Counted from the first letter of the stretch, positions 6,633-63,219 are shown. The stretch: 64,000 nucleotides of DNA from an uncultured virus (IMG/VR IMGVR_UViG_3300026191_000001) (IMGVR_UViG_3300026191_000001:1-64000), one strand, 5' to 3'. Program-made: numbers and translations. The notes: generated from the letters alone by a model not told the origin.

Positions 6633-6844
6633 CGTTCTACCGCTTCTAAGTCAATCCAAAGTTCGCGAACACCCTCAGTTTTAAAGGCATGAATACCTTT
6701 AACCCACGTTCCGCGTTTAATTCTTTTTCGTACCGATTCAATATCTTCACCAGATAGCTCACAGTATTTAGTGAGTGGTACGGTTCTTAGGCTAGTAGTC
6801 ACATTAATAGCAACAGGGTAGTTATCATTAGCTGAGTTCGTCAT
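6596..6844 (-). CDS. xis: Excisionase
   Basis: Small winged-helix-like protein (VPLTKYCELSG..RIKRGTW..LWIDLEAVERW) overlapping the int start. Confidence 0.8.
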   Translation of the reverse strand: MTNSANDNYPVAINVTTSLRTVPLTKYCELSGEDIESVRKRIKRGTWVKGIHAFKTEGVRELWIDLEAVERWIRNGGNSLAG

Positions 6845-6877
6845 ATCGTCAATTTCCAAATTGTAAAAGTTAGCTTA

Positions 6878-7066
6878 CTAAGGGAGTGGGTTCCGTTCGT
6901 GGTCTTTACACACAAGTTCCCTACATACAAACCCCCAAATTTTCGTTTTTTGAAGCTTCGCGGTTACTCCATCCTTTACCCAATCAACCGGAGCAGGTTG
7001 ACTTACCGTTGCATACTCATGACAGTATTTACAGTAGGGGACTTTAAAGCGTGGTTTCTCGTTCAT
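6878..7066 (-). CDS. Small Cys-containing hypothetical protein
   Basis: CKYC..C..C; variant start motif GGAAATTGATTTTATG. Confidence 0.55.
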   Translation of the reverse strand: MNEKPRFKVPYCKYCHEYATVSQPAPVDWVKDGVTAKLQKTKIWGFVCRELVCKDHERNPLP

Positions 7067-7113
7067 AAAATCAATTTCCAAATCAAAGGCTGGCTTTCAC
7101 CAGCCTATAAAAG

Positions 7114-16576: not shown

Positions 16577-17247
16577 GGTTCTGCGTCCGGCATATCAACT
16601 TCTTCCCACTGCGGGTCGTCAAACTCCAGTCCTAGTTCCTCAAACTCGGGTTCGTTAGCGGAAACCACGAATTCAGACATTATCTTGTGCACCAAATCAT
16701 AAGTTAGGTCACAATCAGCAACGGCGCGATGTAGCGTTCCTTTGGGCGTAATACCTTCTAGTGCTGCGGCATCTACAAGCTTAAAGCTGCGGTTGCGGCC
16801 ATGAAGGTGATTGTAGATACGCGCTCGTCTCGAGTACTCTGTCATAGCACAGAAGTACTCTTTAGCACCAAAGTAACCGTTACAGTTAATATTCCACGCC
16901 GCATTGGTTTGCACCAGCATTTGGATATCGAAGTTCGCGTTATAAATGATCACGGTCTTTCCCTTTACCGCTTCCATCAGCTTATAGCGAACTTCTGGCC
17001 AAGTGGGAGCCAAAGCACAAGTCTGAAGGCTAATACCGTGAACAGCTTGTGCTTTAGGGTCGATATCTCTAGTAGGGCGTACCAGCGTATCGAGTAATAC
17101 TTTTCCGGTTAGACCATCTTTTACCGCAATTTCTACGATTTGATGGCCATGGCCTATACCTGTCGTTTCAGTATCTAGCGTGCACCAGTGTTTTCCAAGT
17201 AGATACGAAAACGGAGCTGGTAAGTTATTTCCGGTTGCTGGGGCCAT
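16561..17247 (-). CDS. DEDDh 3'-5' exonuclease (DnaQ-like)
   Basis: LDTETTG, YNANFD, HRAVAD. Confidence 0.92.
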   Translation of the reverse strand: MAPATGNNLPAPFSYLLGKHWCTLDTETTGIGHGHQIVEIAVKDGLTGKVLLDTLVRPTRDIDPKAQAVHGISLQTCALAPTWPEVRYKLMEAVKGKTVIIYNANFDIQMLVQTNAAWNINCNGYFGAKEYFCAMTEYSRRARIYNHLHGRNRSFKLVDAAALEGITPKGTLHRAVADCDLTYDLVHKIMSEFVVSANEPEFEELGLEFDDPQWEEVDMPDAEPWREF

Positions 17248-17428
17248 GTGTTTCTCTCAGTAAAGGATGTTGCGGGTTTAGTTCCCGCAACGCATGTTCA
17301 AGTAATAAGGCCCGTTCTATCTGGCTACTTATTTGTGTGATAAGCCGAGACTTATCACACAAAGAACCACAACAGAATTCAGCCTCAGGAGTGTGCTGTA
17401 CTATCACCCCAGGAATATGCGAACTCAT
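17225..17428 (-). CDS. Hypothetical protein
   Basis: Coupled by ATGA overlap to the polymerase stop. Confidence 0.5.
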   Translation of the reverse strand: MSSHIPGVIVQHTPEAEFCCGSLCDKSRLITQISSQIERALLLEHALRELNPQHPLLRETHGPSNRK

Positions 17429-20301
17429 GCGGCCACCTCCACAGGAACTACAGGTTCGTGTCCCATAAGATAAGCAACAACATTATGTCGGTATTCCGTG
17501 GTGAGCTTAGTATCTTTCAGTTCCTTTGGAATATACCCTTCAAGCTCCGGTGCTTCGTCTAGTTCGACTTGACCGAACGGGGCCTTGGTTGGGTGATACG
17601 GCTCGAGCGTGCGACCAACTGAAACGGTACCATCTAGTTTCAGCCAGCTCACTAAGTCAGGGTGACTACACATCACTTCGAGTATGCGTTGACCAAAATC
17701 AACAGCTTGGTCCCATCGTACACTAAATACTAATTCATCGTGAATAGGCATTACGATATCTGCGTCCCATTTTGTATCTGGGGAATTAATCTCGTGCCAT
17801 AGTTTGAGCATCGAGCGCTTCGCTAACGTTGCACAACCACCTTGAATCTTAGCGTTTACCGCTTGGTTCCCAGCTCTACGTTGGATCTTCTTCGCGATAA
17901 ACGCGCCGAACTGTGATAACACCGGATCGTTATACGCATCCCACTTAGCCGTGAAGTGATAGAACCAATCGTTGGTACCTTCATACTTGTAACGTCTGTG
18001 GCCATCAAAGATATCAACGTAACCTTGTACTTCAATCTCGCGCTGAGTGTTTATTCTCCATTGTTCAGCAACAGGGAAGGTATCTCGGTAATTGTCGGTA
18101 CCAGCCCACATTTCATCCGACGTCCAACCTAGTTTATCTTGCACCGTCATTAGAGAGCCCGAGTACCAATAACCAAAGTTAGAAGGCTTACCCGCTGAAC
18201 CACGCCACCACTTAGCAACTTCGTAAGGCTCAAGCGCTGCGTTTTTAACTGGGTCAATAAGCACTCGAGAGTACTGCAGTTTGAACGCTTCTAATTCTTG
18301 GCCCTCAAGATTCTTCACGCTGGCCAACATCCCCGAAGTAAAATCAGGGTAGAAAACCTTGATTGCTGAGGTTGCCGCGCCTAAATGCAAATCATCATAA
18401 GGTATCTGGCCATAAGCCTTCTGGAAGTTAGGGTCTTTACTTAACTCCCCAATCAACACAAGTTCTACCTGAGACCAATCCACAGCCACCAACAAATGGT
18501 CGTCACGATGTGGTAAGAAGAACCCCCGAATATAGGTAGATTCACCACGTTTACTTAGCTGCATCGGGTTAGGGTTCTCAGCGGCCATCCGGCGCGTGTT
18601 AAGTCGCGAACTAATAATCGGGTACATACGGTCTGTCTCAGGGTCCGTAAGTAGCAAATAGTTCGTGATATACAACTTCATTCGCTGTTCTATCTGAGCC
18701 AGCTTATTAATTGCTGTTATTACTTGCTTAGCTGTCTCAGTCGGATACTGATCACAACACTGTTGCGCAAGAACTTGTAACGTTTCTTCCGGCAGCTCAG
18801 CTAACTGGCCATAGCGTTTCCATTCCTTAACCCAAAGCGCGGGGTCAGAGCCTAAACGTTCAGCAAACTCAATCAGCTTACCGCGTGCCTCGGCATCCGT
18901 TTTGATATCACCTTTGATATAAACGAACGGCAGATACAGTAAGTCGTGAAATAACGTGCGCTGTACCATGTAATGCGAGAAGTTACCGCGTAAGTCGAGT
19001 TCCTTCTTCTTGAGCTTGAACTTTTCTTCTTCCATCCAGGGTATTGAAACCGGTCCTGAGGTTAGCGTGGCAAAATCGAAGTCTTCAACGGGGGCGTCGT
19101 GTACTTCGTGGGCTAACATAAAGTCCGCATAACCATCTTTTAGAAACAATATCTTGTCACGATAGCGCTGGTACGAAATACCTTCCTTTCCAACATACCA
19201 TTTAGGTTGTTTCTGATAGAGACGCGGGGCAGGGGCCTCGGGGAACTCTAAGGTTTGAAGTAGTTCGCCTAACTCCTTAATCACTTCGATATAGTTAGCG
19301 CGTTCCGTTTCACGGCGGGAAAGAACCGCGTCTTTGTTAACACGCCAACCTTTTACCCAGCAATCCGAGTAAACGTAACACATTGGGTTTTCTTGCTCGA
19401 AGAACGTGCGTAACACTCCAGGATTCGTGTTCTGCATGAACTGGCAAAGCCAATCGTAAAGACGTACACACCAGTAAGCATCGTCCGCACCGTAGTGAAG
19501 GACTTCTTCACCAGTGAGTAACCCCATATGAGCTTTACCTTGAAGCGCATCTTTAAATGACGTCTGTTTGTAGCCAAAGATACGCTCTGTGATCTGCTTT
19601 AGGTTGTACCCATAGTTAATCGACTTCACATACCCATTGTAGCTATGGTCTGCCTTCGACTCTTTGGCCAATACCTTTTGCATAAGTTCTTGCTGAGCGG
19701 TATCTAACTTTCTAAAGTCTTGGACCCCCGCGAAGGTACGGCGTATTTGAGGGATAAGTTTCTTAATCCCTAATAGGTCCGACTGGCGGAAAATTTCAAT
19801 ATCATACTGGTCCGAATTATAGGCCGATACCGCCATTTGAAGCGTGTCTACGTAGTTCCAACCTAAGTCGATATCTAAGCTTTTAAAACACATCGTCCGC
19901 TCAAAAGGATAGTTATGAATTATCTTCAGCGGATGATCAGCCATATATTGAACAAAGCTACGTATAACCTCAGGCGCTATACGGTTCTCTTCGTCAGCGT
20001 GAGCGGCGTTTGCATAATAAACGGTAGTATCCCCTCGGATATACAGAGAAAAGCCGGTCACCGTTGTTCTATTGATATCAAAGACCAGCTTCTTAGGGTT
20101 GCGATAGTCCTCATCATCTTTATTTAACTTCATGAATTGGTTCAGGCCTTCATGCCTGTCAGCATCATGGGTTTCAATATCGAAACCCACAGGCTGTCCC
20201 ATCTGGTTAATTTTGGCTTTGATTTCCTCGAGAACATGGACATTACGAGCATCAACCAATTGCTCGACTAGTCCAGTTCTCTCGTTAATTTGCGAGTACA
20301 T
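17425..20301 (-). CDS. Family A DNA polymerase with 3'-5' exonuclease domain
   Basis: FDIET, HNYPFE, YGADD; motif A DWSQVEL, motif B GKPSNFGYWY, IQGGCA, motif C IHDEL. Confidence 0.93.
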   Translation of the reverse strand: MYSQINERTGLVEQLVDARNVHVLEEIKAKINQMGQPVGFDIETHDADRHEGLNQFMKLNKDDEDYRNPKKLVFDINRTTVTGFSLYIRGDTTVYYANAAHADEENRIAPEVIRSFVQYMADHPLKIIHNYPFERTMCFKSLDIDLGWNYVDTLQMAVSAYNSDQYDIEIFRQSDLLGIKKLIPQIRRTFAGVQDFRKLDTAQQELMQKVLAKESKADHSYNGYVKSINYGYNLKQITERIFGYKQTSFKDALQGKAHMGLLTGEEVLHYGADDAYWCVRLYDWLCQFMQNTNPGVLRTFFEQENPMCYVYSDCWVKGWRVNKDAVLSRRETERANYIEVIKELGELLQTLEFPEAPAPRLYQKQPKWYVGKEGISYQRYRDKILFLKDGYADFMLAHEVHDAPVEDFDFATLTSGPVSIPWMEEEKFKLKKKELDLRGNFSHYMVQRTLFHDLLYLPFVYIKGDIKTDAEARGKLIEFAERLGSDPALWVKEWKRYGQLAELPEETLQVLAQQCCDQYPTETAKQVITAINKLAQIEQRMKLYITNYLLLTDPETDRMYPIISSRLNTRRMAAENPNPMQLSKRGESTYIRGFFLPHRDDHLLVAVDWSQVELVLIGELSKDPNFQKAYGQIPYDDLHLGAATSAIKVFYPDFTSGMLASVKNLEGQELEAFKLQYSRVLIDPVKNAALEPYEVAKWWRGSAGKPSNFGYWYSGSLMTVQDKLGWTSDEMWAGTDNYRDTFPVAEQWRINTQREIEVQGYVDIFDGHRRYKYEGTNDWFYHFTAKWDAYNDPVLSQFGAFIAKKIQRRAGNQAVNAKIQGGCATLAKRSMLKLWHEINSPDTKWDADIVMPIHDELVFSVRWDQAVDFGQRILEVMCSHPDLVSWLKLDGTVSVGRTLEPYHPTKAPFGQVELDEAPELEGYIPKELKDTKLTTEYRHNVVAYLMGHEPVVPVEVAA

Positions 20302-20707: not shown

Positions 20708-21595
20708 TTACTCTTCGTTATTCAAATTAAACGCCGCTTTAAGGTCCAGCGCTAACGATAGAAGTGCACTGGCCCCGAGATAGATTTCTGAATCGAGACG
20801 CGCTTCCTGTTGGTCCTTAGGAATATCGTCACTTTCTTCAATCAAGCGATCTGAGTACTTGATACGCTTAACAGAACCATCTTCACAAAGCATAGCAGTC
20901 AATTGGTCGTCATAACTGACAGCAAGTTTCTGAACGAGCTTGCCTGAGTCTAAACACAGTTGAATTTCTTCTGAGTCTAGTTCTTGATTTTTTGCACGGA
21001 TAACCGCTTTTGTCTCATCTGCGGCTTGAAGCTCAGTCTCTTCGAGCAATTCAAATTTGTCAGGGTGGCCATTAACAACCCAGCTTGTTAGGTCTGAAGC
21101 AAGAGAGCGTCTTGCGAATGGAACTAACGGTAAACTACCTAGCGCTTTGCGAAGTACCGCAAGGAAGATTTCTGCCTCACCATCTGAAGAGGCATTCACT
21201 AACACTAGTTTATGCTCTGGGATGATTGTGCCAATAGTCGAGGTTTGGTCTGTGAACGCACGCGGTGTTAGAAGTGTGACTATCTCTTCTTTTAAGTCTT
21301 GGCGCTGTTTTTTCCCAACCGGTGATCCCGTTTCCGCTTCAATAAGCTTAACCTTTGCTTCTAACTCTCGGTTGATAACACGGGCCGGTAGTATCTTGCT
21401 CTCTTTTAAAAGCTTAACCGTGTAAATACCTTGAACTTCGTGCGCCAGTAGCGAACCGATAATTGGTGCAAAGCCTAACGAGGCTAGGGTATGCGAACCG
21501 CAAGGGTGAAAGGGGATTGCCTCTAGCGCTGGCACTAGGTTAGACAAGTCTACATTTTGAGTAAGTGAATAAATCTTTGCGTTTTTAAAATACAT
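20708..21595 (-). CDS. rdgC: Recombination-associated protein RdgC
   Basis: MYFKNAKIY..FHPCGS..ESKILPARVI..LTPRAF..LRKALGSLP..GKLVQKLA. Confidence 0.92.
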   Translation of the reverse strand: MYFKNAKIYSLTQNVDLSNLVPALEAIPFHPCGSHTLASLGFAPIIGSLLAHEVQGIYTVKLLKESKILPARVINRELEAKVKLIEAETGSPVGKKQRQDLKEEIVTLLTPRAFTDQTSTIGTIIPEHKLVLVNASSDGEAEIFLAVLRKALGSLPLVPFARRSLASDLTSWVVNGHPDKFELLEETELQAADETKAVIRAKNQELDSEEIQLCLDSGKLVQKLAVSYDDQLTAMLCEDGSVKRIKYSDRLIEESDDIPKDQQEARLDSEIYLGASALLSLALDLKAAFNLNNEE

Positions 21596-21620
21596 CGTCA
21601 ATTTCCTGTTTTTTAGTTAG

Positions 21621-25038: not shown

Positions 25039-25842
25039 CTATAAGTTGATAGGAATTGCTAAAGCGTCGAAGACAGCTTTGGCCGCTACGGTGTCTTGCT
25101 TACCGATAATCGTACCAGCGTTAATTTCGCTTTGTGGTACGTGGAAGAAACCGATGATCTTCCAGAACTTCTTCAGCTCATCACGACTCTCAACAAATCG
25201 AGTAGCCATCGCTTTAGTGAAACCCGCTTCAGCTTCAACTTGCTCCGCTGTGATAGGGTCGTCACTCTGCAGAGCATCTTCTAAGAAGCACTTGGCTGAG
25301 TCACTTAGCTTTTGGTATGTAGCGTGACCAAAGCGTGAGAGGCCGGTAATGGCATCCGATTTATCACCTACCAGGGTTTTGTAAAGGCGCATATCATCGG
25401 GCTTGAATTCTTTAAGCTTCTCACTAACGTATTCCATGGTTACCGTGTCGCTGAGTAGCTGGCGATAATCTTGGTCGTTACTATCAATAAAGATTTCAGT
25501 CTCAGGGGATTTGGTATTTACCAGCTCGGCAATAACATCATCAGCTTCTCGGCCCTCGCATCTAATCTGGATGCAGCCTGAGTGTGTAAGCAATTCACGG
25601 AACTTATCCATGAAGAGGTAAAATTCGTCGGTAGAATCGGAGCTGGCTTTGTATGCTGGGTGGATATCTTGGCGAGGCTTCTTAGCGTTCGCACCATCCC
25701 AAACCCATATTAACGAGCCATAAGGAGAGTTATTTGCACAGGCCTGAACATAGGCGTGAATAGCCCAGCTAGGACCATCGCTTTCAAACTTGCGGCGAAG
25801 AAGGTTATTACCATCACAAATGTGTAGTTTTAGCTTTGTCAT
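25039..25842 (-). CDS. 5'-3' exonuclease (FEN/T5 D15-like)
   Basis: ICDGNN, WDG..YKA, EADDVIA, SNDQD, LVGDKSDAITGL. Confidence 0.9.
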   Translation of the reverse strand: MTKLKLHICDGNNLLRRKFESDGPSWAIHAYVQACANNSPYGSLIWVWDGANAKKPRQDIHPAYKASSDSTDEFYLFMDKFRELLTHSGCIQIRCEGREADDVIAELVNTKSPETEIFIDSNDQDYRQLLSDTVTMEYVSEKLKEFKPDDMRLYKTLVGDKSDAITGLSRFGHATYQKLSDSAKCFLEDALQSDDPITAEQVEAEAGFTKAMATRFVESRDELKKFWKIIGFFHVPQSEINAGTIIGKQDTVAAKAVFDALAIPINL

Positions 25843-25904
25843 ATCGTCAATTTCCGAGAGTAAAAGGGCCGGACTAGCCGACCCTTTTTAAGTTAATTAA
25901 AAGG

Positions 25905-30012: not shown

Positions 30013-30291
30013 TTAAAAATTAGATTTGATAATATTTATTACCCCAGTGTTAAAGAATTCTGCCAGATTTTGTAAGTCTGTCAAAGTTATTTCTTTGGTC
30101 CCTCGTCTTAAGCGACTGAAACTACTTCCAGCCATCCCGAGTTTCTTCCTCAGCGCCTCGCCATCATCATCAAACGTAAACGTTGTGTGGAAATCTATTC
30201 GCATCCCAATAGCCTTGTGCAGGGGGGATACAACCTCAAGTTGGAGCGATACTGGCTCCAACTTGGGTCGGGACTTAGTGTTTAACGACAT
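30013..30291 (-). CDS. XRE-like HTH protein
   Basis: LRKKLGMAGSSFSRLRRGTKEITLTDLQNLAEFF. Confidence 0.75.
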   Translation of the reverse strand: MSLNTKSRPKLEPVSLQLEVVSPLHKAIGMRIDFHTTFTFDDDGEALRKKLGMAGSSFSRLRRGTKEITLTDLQNLAEFFNTGVINIIKSNF

Positions 30292-30562
30292 TAGAAAGAT
30301 TCGGGATATCTAACCCCGTCTGCTGATAACGTGTTAAACGGTCTTGCATGGCCTCAATTTCACTCACTAATGAGTCGGGATAAGGTTGCTTGATCCCAAG
30401 CGTATCGGCCATTTTGTTAGCGGACTCAATATCCTTCAGCAAAGCTTTAAAGTTAGCGCTCGAACCCAGGTTACGTAGCTGGGACAACTCAGCTTGCACT
30501 TTCCTTAGCTTTACAAAGTAATCCGCCTGTAAGTTTTGTGGCATATTGTTTAGGTCCTCCAA
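30275..30562 (-). CDS. Hypothetical protein
   Basis: Operon ORF. Confidence 0.55.
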   Translation of the reverse strand: MEDLNNMPQNLQADYFVKLRKVQAELSQLRNLGSSANFKALLKDIESANKMADTLGIKQPYPDSLVSEIEAMQDRLTRYQQTGLDIPNLSNVVKH

Positions 30563-30563
30563 G

Positions 30564-31199
30564 TCAATAAAGCGCTAGGATAGTTTTTAAATCGTGGTGT
30601 CTTGCCTGAACTCTCGTTCCTGTTACCGCTTCAAAATGATTTAAGGGTAAACGGTACTTCCTAGCAAAGTACTGGCAATATTCACTACGCTTAACAAGAT
30701 ACTTTTGGTAACGGTCACCTTTAATCTCTTCAGGCCTACGCTCTCCATAGACACTTTCAAAGTAACTATAAACGTGTGCCGGAAGATGCCAATATCTTGA
30801 GGGGTAGTGAAACATAGGGTTCGCCCAATTCAGCGTTTCACTATCCATCGTCTTTTGTTTTCCTAGTGGCCAGAGCGGATAAGTTATCAATAAGTAATCA
30901 GGATAAAGTAAACACCACATCATTTTACTTACCTGAATATTTATCTTTTGGCCTTTCACATCGATAACTAGACGAGACTTTTCAAGTCCCGTCTCTAGGT
31001 TCCCCCAAGTCTTCACATGCCAGAAGTCTTCTCGCGCTAACTTAAGTTCCTCATCCCAGTCTAAATCAGGGAACTTATTCTCAACATACGCTTTCAGCTT
31101 TTTGTAAATAAGGTGAACGAAAGGCGCATCGAAAGACTTATCCCAGTAGAACAAGCTACGCTGTAATCGAAAAACATTATCACGACGTAGCTGGGCCAT
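30564..31199 (-). CDS. Hypothetical protein
   Basis: TAATG-coupled to the ligase stop. Confidence 0.6.
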   Translation of the reverse strand: MAQLRRDNVFRLQRSLFYWDKSFDAPFVHLIYKKLKAYVENKFPDLDWDEELKLAREDFWHVKTWGNLETGLEKSRLVIDVKGQKINIQVSKMMWCLLYPDYLLITYPLWPLGKQKTMDSETLNWANPMFHYPSRYWHLPAHVYSYFESVYGERRPEEIKGDRYQKYLVKRSEYCQYFARKYRLPLNHFEAVTGTRVQARHHDLKTILALY

Positions 31200-32374
31200 T
31201 ACAGGTCCTCACGAATACGGGAATTAGTAACATGACAAGGCTTACCTTCTTTGGTGTAGCCAAACGAGAACACCGTGAGTTTCTTACCGATATTCTTATG
31301 ACCGTTCATGGCGTGTTCATGCTTTTCGTGAGCATCCCCAGGCGCCGTAACATCAAAGGTTTTACCGTCTTCTGTCTGACATACATAAATACCTACTTCG
31401 GTACCTAGGCGCTTATTAGGCTTACCTTTACGGACCCCAATAATTTCAAACTCTGCGTCTTCTTCGTCCTTACGCTTCATCAAAGATGCACTGCGTTTAT
31501 CCGTTTCGTAGGATGCGTCACCTTGGCGAACCATCGTGCCTTCATAGCCGTTAGAGGTCCAAAAATCATGATATTTGTCGATACCAGCTTGATCATCGAC
31601 TTTGTAACACGCCGTTAAGCATAGGGTAGGGTAAGAGCTTTCGGTTATACGAGCGTCCAAGTAATTAAATCTATCAGCGTAAGGAAGACCAAGAACAACA
31701 TCATAAATATTGTACGAAAGGTATTTACTGTCTTCTTGTGGCTTCTTGATAAGACTAGAAATATTTTCAAAGGCTTTACCGTGTGCATAGAGCTCACCAT
31801 CCAACGTTGTACCATCCCAAATGCCTCTATCATAAAGAAACTGTAAACGTTCCATAACGTGAACAACCGTGATTGGCTTTCCGCCACGAGAGTAAAGGAA
31901 CACCTTTTCATCTTGTATGGTTGCTAAGCAACGGTGGCCATCCATTTTAGGCTGAACAAATACAGGGAATTCCCAGTCTTTTACTTTATCAATCGGTTGG
32001 GCCAACATCGGTTTAACCAAGCCTAAGGCATTGGTGACCGCTGCACCTTCCTCCGGTTGGTCTTCAACATAGCCTTTATCCAGTTGTTTTTTGACTTTGC
32101 TTTGCGCTTCAAACACGGCTTGCATAATTGGCGTGGTTTCATTGCTGCGACCAATATTCTTGCCTTCAGTGTAATCCGTAGGTGTTTCGACACCTTTGCC
32201 ACCTAAGACCTTGCGAGAGGTTACAAGTGTGGTGGCCGTATCGTCTGGGTTAAGCGTAACCTTGATATGCCACGAACCTACTTTTCCGCCCGAATGGACT
32301 TTATAAAGGGTTTGTTCAAAGCGAACGTCGGCATCTAAAGAGGTGGTGCTAGAGGTATTAGCGGGGATATTCAT
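31199..32374 (-). CDS. ATP-dependent DNA ligase
   Basis: QPKMDGHR, LDGELY, YEGTMVR, LMKRK. Confidence 0.93.
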   Translation of the reverse strand: MNIPANTSSTTSLDADVRFEQTLYKVHSGGKVGSWHIKVTLNPDDTATTLVTSRKVLGGKGVETPTDYTEGKNIGRSNETTPIMQAVFEAQSKVKKQLDKGYVEDQPEEGAAVTNALGLVKPMLAQPIDKVKDWEFPVFVQPKMDGHRCLATIQDEKVFLYSRGGKPITVVHVMERLQFLYDRGIWDGTTLDGELYAHGKAFENISSLIKKPQEDSKYLSYNIYDVVLGLPYADRFNYLDARITESSYPTLCLTACYKVDDQAGIDKYHDFWTSNGYEGTMVRQGDASYETDKRSASLMKRKDEEDAEFEIIGVRKGKPNKRLGTEVGIYVCQTEDGKTFDVTAPGDAHEKHEHAMNGHKNIGKKLTVFSFGYTKEGKPCHVTNSRIREDL

Positions 32375-32419
32375 ATCGTCAATTTCCAAATTTTAAAGTT
32401 AAGCCCGTAGGCGGAGTTA

Positions 32420-32448
32420 AAACTACGCTTTCAACTTTGGTATATCAA
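32420..32448 (-). promoter_or_regulatory. Sigma70-type promoter for the replication arm
   Basis: TTGATA-17-TAGTTT upstream of the ligase. Confidence 0.5.
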
Positions 32449-32470
32449 GTTAAAAACGAAGTTACGCTGC

Positions 32471-32495
32471 AAAAACACAATTTATTTGTGTTTTT
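32471..32495. promoter_or_regulatory. Palindromic operator AAAAACACAA-N5-TTGTGTTTTT
   Basis: Perfect 10-bp arms; related sites at 46421-46443 and 49526-49550. Confidence 0.65.
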
Positions 32496-32603
32496 AATAT
32501 TTATTAAAAAATTCTGCTTTCTTTAATTTATTTAATTGGTTAGAATTTGTTCGTTTTGTTTTGTAGTAAAAGATTTACAGTATGGCCTTGATGGAGTACA
32601 GCC

Positions 32604-32924
32604 GTGTCTAAGAAAATTGACGATAATATAGAACCACCCTGGGAGCTAGAGCGTCGTAGGCGAATAGCTCGAAAGTTTAAAAACATGCGCCAGAATTATC
32701 GATTGACGCAAGAAGAACTCGCTATTGCTGCGGACGTTCACAAGAATACTATTTCAAATGCCGAGCGATACGGCAAAATTTCCACAGAAGAATTCTACAA
32801 ATACCAACAAATTGCAAAACGCGCTCACATGAAGAAGGGACTCGGTGCGGTAGTGAGTAAAATTACCTTATCGGATATCCCATTCTCGGATTTTAAAAGA
32901 TTCTTAGCGACGTTTTGGGAGTAA
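32604..32924 (+). CDS. XRE HTH regulator, repressor candidate
   Basis: LTQEELAIAADVHKNTISNAERYG; divergent from the replication arm; GGAG RBS. Confidence 0.85.
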   Translation: MSKKIDDNIEPPWELERRRRIARKFKNMRQNYRLTQEELAIAADVHKNTISNAERYGKISTEEFYKYQQIAKRAHMKKGLGAVVSKITLSDIPFSDFKRFLATFWE

Positions 32925-32928
32925 TTTT

Positions 32929-33687
32929 ATGTACCGTCACTTCTTTAAAACCTACGGCTTACGGTTCGCGCTTTTCGTTACGGCCCTACTTATCTTTACG
33001 GCTGTTTTAAACAACTTCCTTGTGGAAGGGAAATGGCAACTAAACTCACTGTCCGATATGCTCAGCTACTACGCGGTGATGTTTTCATGCGTTATCTTAG
33101 CTGGCGTAATGGTTAAGGGTTTCAATAATCGTATCGTTTTGGCTTTGATCATAATTGCTTCAATCTCTGAACAGGCGATTGCCAGCCTAATGTTTACGCT
33201 AAGTCCTACACTCCATACCGCTATTGCCATGATTTATGTGCCAGGTATTCTAACCATGGTGATGTACCAGTATCGGGTTAAGTTCCAGTTTTGGGTAGCG
33301 AACCAACTTATTAGGTCTGAAAGATTTAGAGAAGCTGGATTCAAATTGCTGGATAAAACTGAAGACACAAACCTAGGTACATGGTTATGTATGGTGTATA
33401 AGTTGTGCTGGTTTATCTGTTTTGCTATTGCGGTTTACTACCACATATTCACGATACATTTTGGTATTCATGAGACAGGCCCACTACTTTATGGTTATCG
33501 TCTCGTTGATATTGAGTACGCGCTACACTTACCTAGCTTCTATTTCCTGTTTAATATCGTCTTTATTACCCAGACTATTATGTTGCTTATGTTGTTGTTC
33601 CACGCGAGTATTCAAGAGTTCTACGTCAAGGACCTCGCAGGGTCCATACCTAGAAAATTGGAAGTACTATTTAAAAGAGCGGCTTAG
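32929..33687 (+). CDS. Polytopic (~6 TM) membrane protein
   Basis: About six hydrophobic segments; starts 4 nt after the HTH stop, with GGGAG RBS. Confidence 0.75.
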   Translation: MYRHFFKTYGLRFALFVTALLIFTAVLNNFLVEGKWQLNSLSDMLSYYAVMFSCVILAGVMVKGFNNRIVLALIIIASISEQAIASLMFTLSPTLHTAIAMIYVPGILTMVMYQYRVKFQFWVANQLIRSERFREAGFKLLDKTEDTNLGTWLCMVYKLCWFICFAIAVYYHIFTIHFGIHETGPLLYGYRLVDIEYALHLPSFYFLFNIVFITQTIMLLMLLFHASIQEFYVKDLAGSIPRKLEVLFKRAA

Positions 33688-33699
33688 CCGCTCTTTTAA
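33671..33699. terminator. Bidirectional terminator
   Basis: TTAAAAGAGCGGC-TTA-GCCGCTCTTTTAA. Confidence 0.8.
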
Positions 33700-33708
33700 T
33701 TTCTAGAC

Positions 33709-33861
33709 TTAAAAACCAACCGTAGGCTTTTTAGGCTTGAGTGATTCTGTTTTAGGGTTGTCCGCTGGTTTTGGGACAACAACATTACTATCAACATCAG
33801 CCATAGCCATTGTTGAACCCATACCAAGTACTAGCGCGATTGCGAATCCTAATTTTTTCAT
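33709..33861 (-). CDS. 50-aa secreted pre-peptide (not in ORF track)
   Basis: MKKLGFAIALVLGMGSTMAMA|DVDSNVVVPKPADNPKTESLKPKKPTVGF; GGAG RBS; classic Sec signal with AMA cleavage site. Confidence 0.8.
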   Translation of the reverse strand: MKKLGFAIALVLGMGSTMAMADVDSNVVVPKPADNPKTESLKPKKPTVGF

Positions 33862-33904
33862 TGTGTTTCTCCATAAGAGGTTTGGTTGTTTCTATGGAGT
33901 TAAT

Positions 33905-33920
33905 TGCAAAGCATGTGCCT
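33905..33920 (-). promoter_or_regulatory. Sigma54-type -24/-12 promoter for the peptide gene
   Basis: AGGCACATGCTTTGCA versus consensus TGGCAC-N5-TTGCW, with exact GG-N10-GC spacing. Confidence 0.6.
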
Positions 33921-34013
33921 AAACGAAAGTCTAAGAGTTTTAGACCGTTTCAAGCTATAAGGAGTGATATAAGAGGCGAAATGTTGCCTAACTGCGGCAA
34001 CATTTCGATATCA

Positions 34014-34853
34014 CTATAACAGTATTGGTAGTTCTGTTGCCAGTTCCCGACGTTTTAGCAGTGGGACTTGGTTTTTTATCCAAATCTTAATTTTTTGAAT
34101 CCGACTGCCAGCACGCTCTTTTTTATGGTTCTCTACTATCGATAAAGCTTCTAATAACGCCCATCCTTCACCGTCAGGGCCAACGTAACCCCAGCAAGAA
34201 TCATCAATGTCGTTACCTTCGATAACATAACCATACACATCCCCTTCTAAATAGGCGGCGTAGGTTTTAACTTCGCTATCCAAGAATTCAAAGACCTTTT
34301 GAATACGTTCTTTTGTTAACCGCTTAAAACCATACTCTTCACGAGCTTTTTCTTTGGTAACGTAGATAAAACCGACTTGGCCAGAGTCCCAAGAACACGA
34401 GAAACCCCCTGTATTCATCGTTATTCCAGAATGGTCGTACAGGTAGAGTGGGAGGATGAAGTAGTATTTATCAAGTCGCGCTTCAATCTTCGCCTCAACC
34501 AGTTCTTGGTAATCTTTAGTCCCTTGGGCATCCCAATTTGTTGAAGGCCAGTTATGTTCTAGTCTTTCCAACATCGCCTCAAATCCTGGCTCAACTTCTT
34601 CTACCATACCGATACGATAGTCTTGGTAGCTTACTGAAGGTTGTTCGTCACCTAAATTGTATCTACTATGCCAGCACACCATTGTGCCCACGTTATCCCA
34701 CTCACGAGGGCTTTCAGCATCCCCATCACGCTCGATTTTAATTGTTATATCTTTTATTTGAGTCTCAGACTCACCAATTAGATCAAGGGTGTTAAAGTCT
34801 AGGCTTAACTTCTGGCAGTTTGCCTTTAGTTGTTTTGATAGTTCAGGGTGCAT
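34014..34853 (-). CDS. Hypothetical phage protein
   Basis: YLYDHSG..WDSGQVGFIY..DSCWGY; start motif. Confidence 0.7.
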   Translation of the reverse strand: MHPELSKQLKANCQKLSLDFNTLDLIGESETQIKDITIKIERDGDAESPREWDNVGTMVCWHSRYNLGDEQPSVSYQDYRIGMVEEVEPGFEAMLERLEHNWPSTNWDAQGTKDYQELVEAKIEARLDKYYFILPLYLYDHSGITMNTGGFSCSWDSGQVGFIYVTKEKAREEYGFKRLTKERIQKVFEFLDSEVKTYAAYLEGDVYGYVIEGNDIDDSCWGYVGPDGEGWALLEALSIVENHKKERAGSRIQKIKIWIKNQVPLLKRRELATELPILL

Positions 34854-34910
34854 CGTCAATCTCCAACAAGTTAATTTCAAGAGGGGGAGAACATTCCCCC
34901 TTTCAGGGTT

Positions 34911-35261
34911 TTAAATTTCGCAACTGGGCTGGGCGTCATGCCAAGCTTCAAAAACTCGTAAACGAATCGCTTCAGGTATTTCTACCTTGTCTGCACAGCT
35001 CGTTATATATGAGTCTGCTCTCATGTTTTCAGTGAACACGAACAAGGTAGGCTTCAACGAGTTTCGGGCTCTAGACGCTGCCCCCATATCAATATTGTTA
35101 TCAATAAAAACCACTTGGGGGTCTATTTCGTTGAGGTGAGCTTCAATGAACTCTTTCAGGCTAGGGTTAATCAAGCTCATGTAAGCTCGAACGCAATAGC
35201 CTATGAAAGCACTGTTGATCTCTTCAAGAATTGCTTTAGTGTCCGCGGTACTAATTTGCAT
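34911..35261 (-). CDS. Hypothetical protein
   Basis: Start motif. Confidence 0.6.
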   Translation of the reverse strand: MQISTADTKAILEEINSAFIGYCVRAYMSLINPSLKEFIEAHLNEIDPQVVFIDNNIDMGAASRARNSLKPTLFVFTENMRADSYITSCADKVEIPEAIRLRVFEAWHDAQPSCEI

Positions 35262-35463: not shown

Positions 35464-35897
35464 TCGCTGTCCCATCCCCAGTTACGCGCTTCAGGGCAGA
35501 CTTCTTCTCGGGTTACTGCGCTGTCCGTGTAATTATTGAACCACTCCGCTAAAGCCGTTTCGTCGAGTTCGGCTAACGTGTCCCACTCATAGACAGTGGT
35601 GCTTTCCTGCTCGAGGTAGAAACCGTTCTCTTTGATATACTCTTTGCAGTGTTCAATCCATTCGTCCCAGTCTGAAATCCAGTCCATTTCTTCGAAATCT
35701 AGGCACCAATCCCCCATAACGTTACCGTTAGAGTCTAAAAACGCTCCGGAGCAGCCTTCAATTGGCGCATCATCACCGATACTATCTATTACTTTCTGTA
35801 GGGCTTTCTTTATTTCACTCGCTGCCCCTTCGGTGGTAGATAGCGCGTCGTCCCCGCTTTCAATGTTTATTTCTAATTTTGTGTTTGATACTCGCAT
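35460..35897 (-). CDS. Acidic hypothetical protein
   Basis: Start motif; strongly D/E-rich. Confidence 0.65.
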   Translation of the reverse strand: MRVSNTKLEINIESGDDALSTTEGAASEIKKALQKVIDSIGDDAPIEGCSGAFLDSNGNVMGDWCLDFEEMDWISDWDEWIEHCKEYIKENGFYLEQESTTVYEWDTLAELDETALAEWFNNYTDSAVTREEVCPEARNWGWDSE

Positions 35898-35952
35898 CGT
35901 CAATTTCCTAAGTTAATTTCAAGAAGGGGGGGAGAACATTCCCCCCTAAGAT

Positions 35953-39144: not shown

Positions 39145-39423
39145 TTACGACTTTTCAGGTCGTTCGAACTTCTCACCACAATAGCAGCAATGGCTTGCTA
39201 GTATCGTTATTGAATCTTTCTTAAGATTCTTTTGCGGGGTACCGTCTCGCTTCATAGGCCGATACTCGTAGTCAATTTTAGGATTGGTTGGAGCATACTG
39301 ACCTTCCGCAAGCATATAAGCTCGGCCCTGCCATTCGGCTTTAAATTCTTCCACGTTGTCCGGCAATTGCTCTTTAATATGCTCGGTTACTTTTTCCATC
39401 GTTTCTTCAAAACAATTACACAT
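39145..39423 (-). CDS. Small Cys-containing hypothetical protein
   Basis: MCNC..HCCYCG; start motif. Confidence 0.7.
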   Translation of the reverse strand: MCNCFEETMEKVTEHIKEQLPDNVEEFKAEWQGRAYMLAEGQYAPTNPKIDYEYRPMKRDGTPQKNLKKDSITILASHCCYCGEKFERPEKS

Positions 39424-39434
39424 CGTCAATTTCC

Positions 39435-43378: not shown

Positions 43379-43866
43379 TACTCGTCCCCTACCGGTAGGG
43401 TTGCAAGATAGGCTAGAACATCATCTGACAGAGTAAGAATGTTACGTATCATCTGCTCGTTCGCTTCGACAAATCCCGTTAGGTCGTTAGCTGTTTCGCC
43501 ACCAAAGTCCACGCGGCCATCGCCCATACGGTCCTCGATGTTCAGTTGCTTGCAGTAGCGTTCCGCGTCTTTGAGTGTTAGACAGTCTGCCACATGGGTT
43601 TCAGTCTCGGTGCATACGTCAAACACCACTCTTGGGCGAATAAAGTGCGGCCCTACTTGTGTGCAGTCAATTCGGTGATCTTTGACTTCACCATGCACCA
43701 CACCTGAGAAGAACTGTTCACTTTCGTAGATTCGCTGGCACTCTTGCTTTAGGGTATTTATCGATTGCTTAGAGTCCTCTAGTTTCTTTTGCAACGACTC
43801 TATAACATCCACTAGTTCGTCGTTACGGAAGTTTTCTAAATAATTTTTTCTGTTAATTTCACTCAT
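43378..43866 (-). CDS. Hypothetical protein
   Basis: Start motif. Confidence 0.6.
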   Translation of the reverse strand: MSEINRKNYLENFRNDELVDVIESLQKKLEDSKQSINTLKQECQRIYESEQFFSGVVHGEVKDHRIDCTQVGPHFIRPRVVFDVCTETETHVADCLTLKDAERYCKQLNIEDRMGDGRVDFGGETANDLTGFVEANEQMIRNILTLSDDVLAYLATLPVGDE

Positions 43867-44014
43867 CGTCAATTTCCTTAAAGTTACAATAAACTGGCCC
43901 TTCATCAGGGGCCATAAAGTCAATTTCTGGGTCGGTAGCAAACTCGCAGTGCTCAACCGTTTTGTACCCCTCACCTAGCATGGTGCCACCACACTTTTTG
44001 CACACTTGGCGCAT
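43859..44014 (-). CDS. Small Cys-rich protein
   Basis: CKKCGG..HC..PDEGPVYC; variant start motif. Confidence 0.6.
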   Translation of the reverse strand: MRQVCKKCGGTMLGEGYKTVEHCEFATDPEIDFMAPDEGPVYCNFKEIDDE

Positions 44015-44543: not shown

Positions 44544-45028
44544 AATTCACCTCGTTGTGAAAGAGAAATGGCGGGACAGCCTTGGCCGTTACCTACGATG
44601 ATGTGATCGAGTAACGGCACGTCAATAGTCGACAGGGCTTGTTTAATCTCTTGCGTCAAACTAATGTCCGCTCGGCTTGGTTCAGGATGGCCCGAAGGAT
44701 GGTTATGCGCGATTATTACCGCCGCAGCATTCAGCTCTAAAACACGACGAATAATCTCACGAGGGAAAACCGAGGCCGCGTTTATCGTGCCCTCAAACAT
44801 AATTTCACCCACAATCAAACCGTGTTGAGCATCAAGGAACAGGCAAAGAAAACGTTCGCGAGAACCCTCGCATAGCTGCAAGGCACAATAGTCTTTACAT
44901 GCGCCAACGTCGGTTATCTTAGAGCGGCCATAATGGTTAGGCTGTTTCTCACGAATGATGTTTAGCGCTCGAGTGATAGCGCGTTTCTCAGTAGGGGTGT
45001 AAGGACCACAATCAGTTAGTCTAGTCAT
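44540..45028 (-). CDS. RadC-like JAB domain protein
   Basis: ERFLCLFLD..GTINAASVFPREI..AHNHPSG..PSRAD..LLDHIIVG. Confidence 0.92.
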   Translation of the reverse strand: MTRLTDCGPYTPTEKRAITRALNIIREKQPNHYGRSKITDVGACKDYCALQLCEGSRERFLCLFLDAQHGLIVGEIMFEGTINAASVFPREIIRRVLELNAAAVIIAHNHPSGHPEPSRADISLTQEIKQALSTIDVPLLDHIIVGNGQGCPAISLSQRGEL

Positions 45029-45096
45029 AACGTCAATTTCCAATTTTTAAAAAGTTAATTACCAAATCAGGGGGGAACATTCTCCCCCTTCAAACC

Positions 45097-45920: not shown

Positions 45921-46307
45921 CTATGCCGATTCTCGGGCCGCAGCGTCACCACGAGAAGACTTCTCGGGGAATTCGTCCTTACCTAGCACCTTTTCCATTG
46001 CACCCGCTGAGGATGCGATAGAGGCCGCGCATTCAACACCGCAGTTAAAGCCAAAATCGACCAGTTTTTCGACAACCGAAAAGTCCAGGCCGAGTTCTTG
46101 ACTCAGCGCTTGGGTACGACGATACATTTCGCCGAGGTCATTCGTGCCCTTCAGAGCATCAGATTTTCGGTAGAGACCAATGAGACATTCGATTTGCTTG
46201 GCTTTCATCTGCATGACAGCTTCAGCAATCTCGCGCTGGGTTTGGCGCATGAGTTCGTGAGGGGAGGGAGCAGTCTGGTTTACAGGTTGGGGAATGGATT
46301 TAGTCAT
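45921..46307 (-). CDS. Hypothetical protein
   Basis: Start motif; first gene after a sigma70 promoter. Confidence 0.65.
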   Translation of the reverse strand: MTKSIPQPVNQTAPSPHELMRQTQREIAEAVMQMKAKQIECLIGLYRKSDALKGTNDLGEMYRRTQALSQELGLDFSVVEKLVDFGFNCGVECAASIASSAGAMEKVLGKDEFPEKSSRGDAAARESA

Positions 46308-46368
46308 ATCGTCAATTTCCTAGTTAATTAATCGGCTCACGCCGTAACACCCCGAAGGGCGGATTTCA

Positions 46369-46397: not shown

Positions 46398-46619
46398 TTG
46401 CAATGGTCTGATTAAGACCAAAAAACACAATTTGGGTGTGATTCACTCCCACGGTGGTTTGTTGCACGTTGCGACAGTGAGGACCACAAGCGAATTCAAA
46501 TTCCAAGACGCGCAAAGGTTACAGGTCGTCACACAAAGGTCGTTGGGTAGATCACTGCGACTTGCAGCAAGTCACAAGGAGTAACGAGGACATTGTGTGT
46601 AAATAAACCTCAGGTACGA

Positions 46620-46971: not shown

Positions 46972-47205
46972 GGTGTTAACTGGCTCTGGAATGTCCGTTT
47001 GCGCCAGTCTGATTGTTGTGCTCATTTCGCAAATCAACAACATTTGGTGATGCTTGGCTACGTGTTCTGGGTCCAAATTTCCCAATTCCATGAGTGTCAC
47101 ACCTTTCAATTCTAGCGTGCCAATCTCGTATTGCAGCGTGCCATATTGGAGGACAACCACTGGCTTATGCCAGCCAAATCGTATCGAAACGTTGTTAAAT
47201 TCCAT
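46897..47205 (-). CDS. Hypothetical protein
   Basis: Start motif. Confidence 0.55.
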   Translation of the reverse strand: MEFNNVSIRFGWHKPVVVLQYGTLQYEIGTLELKGVTLMELGNLDPEHVAKHHQMLLICEMSTTIRLAQTDIPEPVNTCSRKLFDETGVEPSKVTQKPSLSA

Positions 47206-47480
47206 CGTCAATTTCCTGTCAAAATGTGCTCAAATATGGGGGGGAATGTTCCCCCCTGAAGCCCTTAAATTGGGCTTGGTCTTGAGGTTAAGGCAAATAC
47301 CTGTGGCCTTAAAATACTTTACACGACCCTTGTATAGGTCCTATATTCTCATGCGAGAAGCTTGGAAAGAGGCTTGAGGGTCGGAATCGGCGCTGCTCCT
47401 ATTTCCGCGCTGTCAACCCTCAATTCGAATTTTTTGATTCTTTTTCTCGAACCAAAAACCACCAGCCTCGATTCTAGATT

Positions 47481-49209: not shown

Positions 49210-49413
49210 AAAAAGAAAACCCCGAGGGATTATGGCCACTCGGGGTTTGAGACGTTCAACGTAATCAGAGGTCGTTGTTCGTAGGATAAGCTTGAAACTA
49301 GGTATGCGGACGGGCACAAAGATTAGAACAGGCTTTATCGTCAATTTCCAAATTGTAAGGAGCGCTGGGCTCCCGCGGTTGAGGCATGTAAGCTGTTTGC
49401 TGTCAACGCCAAC
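49210..49413 (-). ncRNA. Candidate ~200-nt small RNA carrying the start-associated motif
   Basis: TTGACC-15-TATACT upstream; two 5' hairpins; UUACAAUUUGGAAAUUGACGAUA with no following AUG; terminator AAACCCCGAG..CTCGGGGTTTTCTTTTT. Confidence 0.5.
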
Positions 49414-49614
49414 TAAAGTATAAAAATCTCCTCGATTGGTCAAGTAAGTAAACCGGTGGCAAACCTTATATTATGTTATATAAGTGTTAAATCACGAGGG
49501 CTTTTGTTGTCGTATTTCTGAAATAAAAGACACAATTAAATTGTGTTTTTGTAGCTGGAAAAGTTCATCACTTGAAAGCACTTACACACATTGTCAGTGT
49601 GTGCAAAGAAACGT

Positions 49615-52181: not shown

Positions 52182-52670
52182 TTACTCCTGATTAAGTACG
52201 AGTTTCATTTCTTCGATAAACTCAGTTTTTTGCTGCGGTGTTAGATAGCGCTCCATGCTATCGAGGATAAACGTTTTGAATACACCAAATTGTTTTATAC
52301 CTGAGGCTCGTTCTTGAACATCGAGGATTTTTTCCATCAGTGACACCATGGTACGAAACGTACTGGTCATTTCGCTTGTGTCACTTTTGTTCAGTGCCGT
52401 TTTAAATGTTTTCATATCACGGTAAAGCTGAAGGGCTTCCGTCTCGAAATCAGGAACCGCATCTGAATCCTCTATTTCTGAGTCTGCAACGGTTATGCCA
52501 GCGTCGGTTTGGATGCTAAAAATAGCGGTAAGGAATTCTATCTCGTTGGGCTCGTAAGGGCAGTCTTCATCGTCGAGGTAGGTTGGGTCGTCTTGAATTA
52601 GTTTTTTCCACGTATTCAGCGTTGTGAAAAGGTTCGGGGTGAACTCAGGATAGAACTTGGGTGTTTTCAT
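52182..52670 (-). CDS. Hypothetical protein, possible small terminase subunit
   Basis: Helical 162-aa protein divergent from terL; start motif. Confidence 0.45.
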   Translation of the reverse strand: MKTPKFYPEFTPNLFTTLNTWKKLIQDDPTYLDDEDCPYEPNEIEFLTAIFSIQTDAGITVADSEIEDSDAVPDFETEALQLYRDMKTFKTALNKSDTSEMTSTFRTMVSLMEKILDVQERASGIKQFGVFKTFILDSMERYLTPQQKTEFIEEMKLVLNQE

Positions 52671-63206: not shown

Positions 63207-63219
63207 AAGGAAATTGACG

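Follow-up and report, generated by a model that had tools for sequence, protein, structure and literature searches.

A paired membrane-protein and putative exported-peptide cassette behind the regulator gene of a temperate phage, with a possible role in envelope exclusion

The window analysed here is a 64,000-nucleotide (nt) stretch of an uncultured virus genome (IMG/VR IMGVR_UViG_3300026191_000001, positions 1-64000), i.e., the first 64 kb of an 81,404-bp record. Behind a phage regulator gene encoding a helix-turn-helix (HTH) protein of the XRE type, it carries a gene for a 252-amino-acid (aa) membrane protein with six transmembrane (TM) helices and, convergent on this, a gene for a 50-aa pre-peptide. 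These two genes are a real, orphan and tightly paired membrane-protein/exported-peptide cassette grafted onto the regulator gene. By analogy, we tentatively suggest that the cassette is of the moron type and provides a prophage-expressed envelope function, either superinfection exclusion or defence. There is a small chance that it is a peptide-responsive switch of a new kind. The features of the region are:

32604..32924, plus strand: XRE-type HTH regulator, 106 aa, GTG start, GGAG-N7; backbone gene
32925..34013: accessory cassette of about 1.09 kb, between the stop of the HTH gene and the stop of the convergent gene for a 288-aa protein
32929..33687, plus strand: orphan inner-membrane protein (the TM protein), 252 aa, six TM helices, predicted N-in/C-in (hydropathy, positive-inside rule, AlphaFold2 helices)
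33672..33698: bidirectional intrinsic terminator common to the TM and peptide genes, AAAAGAGCGGC-TTA-GCCGCTCTTTT
33709..33861, minus strand: 50-aa pre-peptide gene, GGAG-N7-ATG (supported by 36 variable sites and substitution rates)
33905..33920, minus strand: sigma-54-like -24/-12 element AGGCAC-N5-TTGCA, AGGCACATGCTTTGCA, about 45-60 nt upstream of the peptide ATG
33977..34007, minus strand: 12-bp perfect inverted repeat CGAAATGTTGCC-N7-GGCAACATTTCG, directly after the 288-aa gene

The cassette and its two products

For conservation, a 3-kb stretch was aligned between the window and six distinct relatives (L004, L005, L006, L007, L008 and L009) that share 78-98% DNA identity; the counts below refer to these seven genomes. 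All three genes proposed by the first-pass annotation are present as open reading frames (ORFs). Although missing from the ORF track, the small one is a real coding gene under strong purifying selection: of its 36 variable sites, 3, 2 and 31 are at codon positions 1, 2 and 3 (binomial p 8.7e-11), and the ratio of nonsynonymous to synonymous substitution rates (dN/dS) is 0.03-0.045. Other annotators have called it elsewhere, as KUL113_04070. The corresponding counts are 86:33:192 for the TM gene and 18:6:72 for the HTH gene, and dN/dS over both cassette products is 0.03-0.06. Compared with the most distant relative, L007, the peptide has a dN of 0.049, the HTH protein one of 0.082 and the TM protein one of 0.175; by this measure the peptide is the most constrained of the three products.

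The borders of the cassette are seen from two further IMG/VR records (loci L020 and L021), which contain a form of the HTH protein (P0051) with 69% identity. Here, the order is ligase, HTH and a 281-aa homologue of the 288-aa protein, with the convergent stops only 2 bp apart. DNA homology to these loci stops at 32914 and restarts at 34035, the gap being 33 bp in L020 and 1,120 bp in the window. There is no TM or peptide match anywhere in the two records at an expectation value (E) of up to 10, and the same peptide search detects the peptide in 4 of 4 cassette-bearing records. The C-terminal half of the HTH protein is conserved in the cassette-free sister too. The sisters keep the HTH gene and lack the other two; the HTH gene is therefore part of the backbone, and the TM and peptide genes are an accessory cassette, very probably a single add-on unit. 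Drawn along these borders, it would comprise the TM gene, the shared terminator, the peptide gene, its promoter region and the upstream hairpin.

The record of L020 is a provirus (G005), 94% complete, with an integrase 82% identical to that of the window. The first-pass annotation had suggested a possible analogue of arbitrium, with a membrane receptor that senses the peptide and controls the HTH protein. The module is not the core lysis-lysogeny switch, as an integrase-bearing sister provirus holds the HTH gene alone.

The TM and peptide genes are found together in 7 of 7 loci and are absent together from both sister loci. The TM protein and the peptide, each used as a query, hit the same four IMG/VR records besides the window's own, and the genes are also adjacent in an NCBI annotation (KUL113_04070 and KUL113_04080). 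The expectation that a small signal-peptide ORF consistently adjoins the TM gene is thus correct, within one narrow lineage.

The TM gene is tied to the regulator gene by its translation signals. Its ATG lies 4 nt past the HTH stop and the last HTH codons form the GGGAG of its ribosome-binding site; the coupling proposed earlier is therefore real, and the TM protein should be made together with the regulator. At the other end, 21 nt separate the TM stop from the peptide stop. The terminator between them, which had also been predicted to be shared and bidirectional, is stable on both strands (free energy, dG, -20.6 and -21.2 kcal/mol; z -4.9 and -4.7), has A and T runs on both sides and is invariant in 7/7 genomes. 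The only Rfam match, to the enterobacterial small RNA STnc540, is sub-threshold at 31.6 bits (cut-off 38, E 2.3e-4). It extends over 33615-33748, from the 3' end of the TM gene across the terminator into the 3' end of the peptide gene, and the hairpin most likely accounts for it.

Hairpins flank the peptide gene on both sides. Upstream of it, on its own strand, there is no sigma-70-like site. The sigma-54 consensus is TGGCAC-N5-TTGCA, from which AGGCACATGCTTTGCA differs by one mismatch. GG-N10-GC and TTGCA are the same in all seven genomes in spite of variable flanks and, in L006, of a deletion of 11 nt directly upstream of the element. From its position and conservation, we give roughly even weight to this element being a sigma-54 promoter. 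The pattern is not enriched genome-wide (2 matches, 0.95 expected); the second match, TGGCATAACCGTTGCA at 52485-52500 on the minus strand, lies inside a 164-aa gene next to the terminase and is probably due to chance. The phage encodes no sigma-54 activator, as judged by the lack of any PF00158 protein. About 100 nt upstream of the sigma-54-like element, the inverted repeat at 33977-34007 (dG -20.8, z -6.25) has arms kept in 7/7 genomes, a variable loop and a weak T-run. It may be the terminator of the 288-aa gene, a candidate upstream activator site, or both.

The TM protein has six hydrophobic segments. Because its N-terminus, the 113-150 loop and the C-tail are rich in Lys and Arg, the predicted topology is N-in/C-in. 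Its conserved cytoplasmic motifs are GFNNR (64-68), EKTEDTN (in the 143-148 region) and IQEFYVKDLxGxIP (228-241), while identity among the relatives drops to 75-77%. As the first-pass annotation had stated, it has no recognisable domain: there is no Pfam, PHROG (E<=0.01) or PADLOC family, and Pfam searches with nine TM homologues are empty for 9/9 except for one OppC_N match at E 1.1. Only three distant homologues exist among 1.84 billion representatives, P0010 with 39% identity and P0012 and P0013 with 29-31%. A nine-sequence alignment has 30 invariant columns which, by the predicted topology, are distributed as 19 cytoplasmic, 3 periplasmic and 8 in the membrane. The cytoplasmic ones lie in the N-terminus, GFNN, the end of the 113-150 loop and the tail (E230-P241). 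With 19 of the 30 on this side, the conserved working surface is therefore expected to face the cytoplasm.

Structural searches do not place the protein in a known fold. The AlphaFold2 model, built on P0001, which is one residue off the window's protein, has a predicted local distance difference test score (pLDDT) of 71.7 and a predicted template modelling score (pTM) of 0.62. Foldseek finds only generic helical bundles with it (best E 0.54 in the PDB and 0.11 in BFVD), and a wide VIA-align search reaches a best Z of 8.7 to designed helical proteins, which is in the noise range for helical models. In the ESM Atlas, the best score is 0.84, below the level of a lead. Two unusual homologues were also seen. 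P0007 (264 aa), from a contig of 2.5 kb, matches the first 59% of the TM protein at 97% identity and then continues into SMC/AAA Pfam matches; possibly it is a chimeric assembly. P0014 has 1,698 aa, and 25 repeated stretches in it match TM residues 31-75.

The pre-peptide reads as an MKK n-region, a hydrophobic core and A-M-A before D22. It is predicted to consist of a Sec-type signal (residues 1-21, cleaved between AMA and D) and a 29-aa mature part rich in Pro and Lys. Sec export in a Gram-negative cell delivers proteins to the periplasm, not to the medium. Public collections hold 20 variants of the peptide. The last 11 residues, SLKPKKPTVGF, are identical in 20/20, and changes are limited to residues 22-39 and a few signal-peptide positions. 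No homologues were found beyond close relatives by a word-based search, which is blind to distant short peptides. There is no PHROG or PADLOC family at E<=0.01 and the best ESM Atlas score, 0.78, is also below lead level. A local peculiarity is that, against L006, the synonymous rate (dS) in the signal-peptide half (33799-33861) is 0.071 compared with 1.876 in the mature half, which may reflect RNA or DNA constraint around the start or a local recombination patch.

The HTH-TM unit and the peptide gene are both represented by contigs from RNA libraries of separate studies: X17 record 9 spans 32611-33834 with zero differences, X19 record 20 spans the HTH/TM junction (32766-33533) and X18 record 14 spans 33703-34058. 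This places the sequences in RNA libraries and is not proof of transcription, strand or level. Contig depth is higher over HTH-TM than over the flanks (21.6 against 0-6 in X17 and 121.6 against 2-8 in X19) and was not used as evidence, since such depths do not allow genes to be ranked and RNA libraries may contain DNA. One contig of X18 fuses 34058 to 34936 with 12 other letters between them; this joint therefore represents a natural variant without the 288-aa gene but with the peptide gene.

Regulator, phage backbone and host

The surrounding features are listed below.

5394-6632: integrase
6596-6859: excisionase
31199..32389, minus strand: ATP-dependent DNA ligase, backbone neighbour and first gene of the divergent leftward operon (PF01068, E 7.5e-18; phrog_114, E 1.3e-73)
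32390..32603: AT-rich divergent control region between the ligase and HTH genes (GC 0.36-0.37)
32471-32495: perfect palindrome AAAAACACAA-N5-TTGTGTTTTT within this control region
34014..34880, minus strand: 288-aa early protein of unknown function, backbone neighbour (phrog_6186, E 3.6e-28)
6842-6857, 21591-21606, 25840-25855, 32372-32387, 35893-35908, 39419-39434, 43862-43877, 45026-45041, 46305-46320 and 49334-49349, minus strand: copies of the 16-mer GGAAATTGACGATATG
63209-63224, plus strand: further copy of GGAAATTGACGATATG

The regulator belongs to the XRE or Cro/CI type of HTH proteins. Its match to Pfam HTH_3 (PF01381; E 9.2e-5, 22.8 bits) falls marginally below the cut-off of 23, and the assignment is supported by eight PHROG regulator or repressor families (best E 2.7e-5), by HTH_VI and Control_protein in PADLOC and by the C.BclI controller protein in the PDB (E 0.0037). 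The protein has no second Pfam domain, i.e., it lacks the S24/dimerisation domain of repressors of the lambda CI/LexA type. The AlphaFold2 model (pLDDT 53) is too weak for a fold search or for judging the C-terminal part. There is no other CI-like or S24 repressor candidate within the window, and this is the sole HTH gene on the opposite strand. We consider it probable that the protein is a regulator made in the lysogen, either the maintenance repressor or a close equivalent.

The control region in front of the regulator gene is kept in the seven cassette-bearing genomes and differs in the sister locus L020. A palindrome, ACACAA-N5-TTGTGT, occurs there and at two more intergenic sites (32473-32493, 46423-46443 and 49528-49548), and each of these precedes the first gene of an operon on the minus strand by about 85-115 nt; in total there are 5 matches compared with 0.64 expected. 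The relatives G001 and G004 have two sites each and the cassette-free sister G005 has none. It was considered as the operator of the HTH protein and rejected. As G005 lacks it despite an identical HTH recognition helix, it is probably the site of another regulator.

The phage is temperate, as the first-pass annotation had concluded, because it encodes an integrase and an excisionase and two relatives are classed as proviruses. The record has 69-bp direct terminal repeats at its ends. A long minus-strand block contains replication, recombination and methylase genes, and packaging and head genes are on the plus strand from 52.7 kb onward. The regulator and the TM gene had been described as the only plus-strand island between 5.4 and 52 kb. 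This is reasonable and remains unproven, as four further plus-strand ORFs of at least 70 aa are present there (6899-7117, 17235-17468, 30026-30313 and 47054-47377); none has a family match and two overlap minus-strand ORFs.

The likely start of the ligase gene is the ATG at 32374, with the repeated leader GGAAATTGACGAT just before it. The 16-mer GGAAATTGACGATATG has 11 copies at up to two mismatches, compared with 0.03 expected, ten of them on the minus strand. Where copies were checked against ORF starts (6842, 25840, 32372 and 46305), the 3' end is the start codon of the gene. The 16-mer is a common leader or translation-start element of early gene modules. The HTH, TM and peptide genes are without it. 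RNA and DNA contigs also have joints at longer repeats around it (32370-32402, 34851-34900 and 35896-35947), where modules could be shuffled.

The closest isolate by the large terminase is Pseudoalteromonas phage KB12-38 (50.6% identity), and the phage collection gives neither a DNA nor a protein match for the region, the TM protein or the HTH protein. The GC content of the region is 41-45%. Two NCBI homologues, P0003 and P0005, are labelled Tenacibaculum sp. KUL118 and KUL113. However, Table 1 of the source study gives 7.6-7.9 Mb and 38.6-39.1% GC for these assemblies and 4.5 Mb and 44% GC for its Alteromonas strains (PMC10112130). The assemblies thus look like mixtures of Alteromonas and Tenacibaculum, which makes the Tenacibaculum label doubtful, and we infer an Alteromonas-like gammaproteobacterium as the host.

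Possible roles of the cassette

We suggest that the locus could work in two layers. The first would be the backbone XRE-type HTH gene, read in the opposite direction to the early and replication genes and expressed in the lysogen. The second would be the 1.09-kb cassette, inserted exactly behind the HTH stop, in which the separately promoted peptide gene would give a Sec-exported, 29-aa Pro/Lys-rich periplasmic peptide. The TM protein and the peptide may then act at the inner membrane and in the periplasm of the lysogen on a conserved target, which could be the DNA-delivery machinery of incoming phages or a component of the host envelope. An invariant peptide C-terminus is easier to reconcile with such a conserved target, of host or phage, than with a receptor specific to the phage. 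P22 SieA is described as a prophage-expressed inner-membrane exclusion protein (PMC10883804), and morons are described as independent transcription units (PMC3594210). Judged by such precedents, exclusion appears to be the commonest role of cassettes that lie behind a repressor gene and encode inner-membrane proteins. For these reasons, envelope exclusion or defence is ranked first, two unlinked morons second and a signalling input like that of the Sdp system third, where the first place is still a tentative one.

Several observations weigh against exclusion or defence. In PADLOC, PHROGs, Foldseek and VIA-align, neither the TM protein nor the peptide has a sequence or fold tie to any known exclusion or defence protein. 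An HTH gene followed by a six-TM gene in one operon, with a convergent gene for an exported peptide, is also the arrangement found in Sdp. The cytoplasmic bias of the invariant TM residues would suit a cytoplasmic partner, e.g., the HTH protein, at least as well as action in the periplasm. A sigma-54-type promoter would be unusual for a constitutive exclusion gene and therefore suggests conditional expression. The co-occurrence of the TM and peptide genes goes back to one indel event in one narrow phage lineage, and the loci of the distant homologues P0010, P0012 and P0013 were not found in viral, genome or metagenome collections. Literature searches gave no description of the TM or peptide proteins.

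The first alternative, which we regard as unlikely, is that two unrelated morons lie side by side, the TM gene on the repressor transcript and the peptide gene with its own promoter and its own host target. The opposite strands, separate promoters and intervening terminator agree with this, as do the unequal dN values against L007 given above and the presence of three distant homologues for the TM protein and none beyond close relatives for the peptide, and a single indel event is enough to explain joint presence and absence. However, the seven loci and four further IMG/VR records all carry both genes, a single common hairpin terminates both with no spare DNA between the stops, and the lack of distant peptide homologues comes from the word-based search.

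In the Sdp-like alternative, the peptide would bind the outer face of the TM protein, whose cytoplasmic loops and tail would then capture the HTH protein. This would lift repression of the HTH-TM operon and perhaps also of the early lytic promoters, so that the cassette would add an input, either host state via sigma-54 or peptide load, to an existing repressor. The gene layout is that of sdpRI and sdpABC, the largest and best-conserved cytoplasmic loop of the TM protein is the one between TM4 and TM5, most of the invariant residues are cytoplasmic, translation of the TM gene is coupled to that of the HTH gene, and the TM and peptide genes are gained or lost jointly. On the other hand, the whole 81.4-kb phage has no match to the SdpI family (PF13630) at E<=10, in a search that does detect the family in 9 of 14 control genomes, Bacillus subtilis among them, and the Pfam searches with the nine TM homologues are just as empty. 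The regulator is XRE-type rather than ArsR-type, and it works in the sister provirus without a TM protein, its C-terminal half being conserved there. The peptide is hydrophilic, unlike a membrane-active toxin, only 3 of the 30 invariant residues are in the periplasmic loops that should meet it, and no co-variation between the peptide and the TM protein was found. Thus, we consider this alternative quite unlikely.

The absence of co-variation also bears on the first-pass annotation, which had proposed a check of whether peptide C-termini co-vary with receptor loops; the C-terminus is identical in all variants and no co-variation could be established. A pairing of peptide E39/K39 with TM K35/Q35 in the seven genomes was considered and dropped, as it is broken by P0035 (K35) with P0018 (K39), two proteins that presumably belong together from a common 3,817-nt contig fingerprint. 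Co-folding of the TM protein (alignment A1) with peptide residues 21-50 (A2) gave a score of 0.01 against a mark of 0.32, with no controls, and speaks neither for nor against binding. Of the peptide-signalling idea, the real genes, the joint travel of TM and peptide and the precedent of Sdp hold up; the role as a core switch, the C-terminal variation and the co-variation do not.

A more elaborate form of signalling, to which we give a slight chance, is a plug-in sensory input where a host sigma-54 activator would switch on the peptide, the peptide would act on the six-TM protein, and the conserved cytoplasmic loop and tail of the latter would capture the co-translated HTH repressor. The cassette might then, with the same slight chance, be a phage-borne Gram-negative counterpart of SdpC-SdpI-SdpR made of unrelated proteins, in which host physiology, or the peptide load in dense lysogens, tips the phage toward induction.

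It is very unlikely that the peptide alone explains the cassette as a ligand, in the periplasm, of a DegS/AlgW-type PDZ protease in the envelope-stress pathway, by which the prophage would tune a sigma-E-type response through the C-terminal TVGF, leaving the TM protein with a separate role. The Sec-type signal, the small disordered mature part and the terminal Phe, invariant in 20/20, are consistent with such a ligand. DimA is reported to act only through its last three residues, and its gene to be activated by AlgB at inverted repeats (PMC12780092); an inverted repeat is present here too, upstream of the sigma-54-like element. However, the third-last residue is Val and not Trp or Tyr, while DimA is described as requiring Trp90 and Phe92 and MucE as ending in WVF (PMC12780092). 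Of this earlier suggestion, the terminal Phe is thus in place and the aromatic third-last residue is missing; the tight pairing with the TM gene would also be left unexplained.

An arbitrium-like system, in which the peptide or a C-terminal fragment leaves the cell, accumulates in the medium and sets lysis or lysogeny through the TM protein of other cells, is extremely unlikely. The size and signal peptide resemble pre-peptides of the AimP type, and the gene adjoins a regulator in a temperate phage. However, the export route ends in the periplasm, there is no receptor of the RRNPP type with tetratricopeptide repeats (TPR), the HTH protein has 106 aa and no further domain, and a sister temperate phage does without the system. 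The C-terminus is also identical in all variants while the TM proteins differ by up to 25%, so there is no phage-specific dialect. In titles and the opening lines of abstracts, a literature search found no arbitrium with a signal peptide in a Gram-negative prophage. Finally, a bacteriocin with its immunity protein was set aside, as an exporter is lacking and a hydrophilic peptide exported by Sec should stay in the periplasm.

Whichever reading is right, both cassette proteins fall outside any described family, and the peptide is among the most conserved products of the region. The lineage is common in marine data, with one peptide variant on 453 contigs from several public collections, and sister prophages with and without the cassette provide a natural comparison. 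As the likely host is a culturable Alteromonas, the module should be testable. If envelope exclusion is correct, the cassette would be a new pair of inner-membrane protein and periplasmic peptide that protects lysogens. If the repressor instead receives a peptide signal through the cassette, this would be the first case of a peptide-responsive input to the lysis-lysogeny decision in a phage with a Gram-negative host, with a membrane receptor and not one of the RRNPP type.

Comparison with described systems

In the Sdp system of B. subtilis, as described in PMC2910880, the sdpRI operon is convergent on the sdpABC peptide operon, and SdpI, with six TM segments, binds exported SdpC on the outside and captures the autorepressor SdpR on the inside via its TM4-5 region. 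The likeness to the window lies in an HTH gene (in Sdp, an autorepressor gene) followed by a six-TM gene in one operon, an adjacent convergent gene for an exported peptide and a conserved cytoplasmic region between TM4 and TM5. The layout is therefore the same, and in architecture Sdp is the nearest parallel to the cassette, with no homology. The proteins are different: besides the lack of an SdpI match, an XRE-type regulator and a 29-aa hydrophilic Pro/Lys-rich peptide stand here against an ArsR-type regulator and a processed membrane-active toxin there. Moreover, the system described here is phage-borne, its Gram-negative host would keep the peptide in the periplasm, and its regulator occurs alone in a sister phage.

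Arbitrium shares with the cassette a short, signal-bearing pre-peptide encoded beside a DNA-binding regulator in a temperate phage. However, the cassette has no TPR/RRNPP receptor, and the peptide C-terminus is invariant where that of arbitrium is phage-specific. The peptide gene is convergent and not co-oriented, the envelope is Gram-negative and the module is dispensable in a sister prophage.

DimA, described as a 92-aa Sec-exported microprotein with an activator-dependent promoter and inverted repeats (PMC12780092), and MucE resemble the peptide as small Sec-type exported proteins (here by prediction) with a free C-terminus ending in Phe. The ending is, however, V-G-F in 20/20 variants here and W-x-F there, so that the aromatic-x-Phe pattern is absent. 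The mature part is, at 29 aa, much shorter, and the gene is phage-borne and paired with that of a membrane protein.

Morons and exclusion genes form a further comparison. Precedents of exclusion are the cI-rexA-rexB operon of lambda and Imm with Sp in T4, where a membrane protein (Imm) is paired with a small periplasm-facing one (Sp). None of these, nor P22 SieA, has sequence or fold similarity to the cassette proteins, and a sigma-54-like promoter sets the cassette apart. Likewise, terminators are present as in a moron, but the only promoter candidate is the sigma-54-like element, and the TM gene is promoterless and rides on the HTH gene. The likeness is that the cassette is accessory DNA missing at the same site in close relatives (L020 and L021), bounded by terminators, placed beside or behind a repressor gene and encoding an inner-membrane product.

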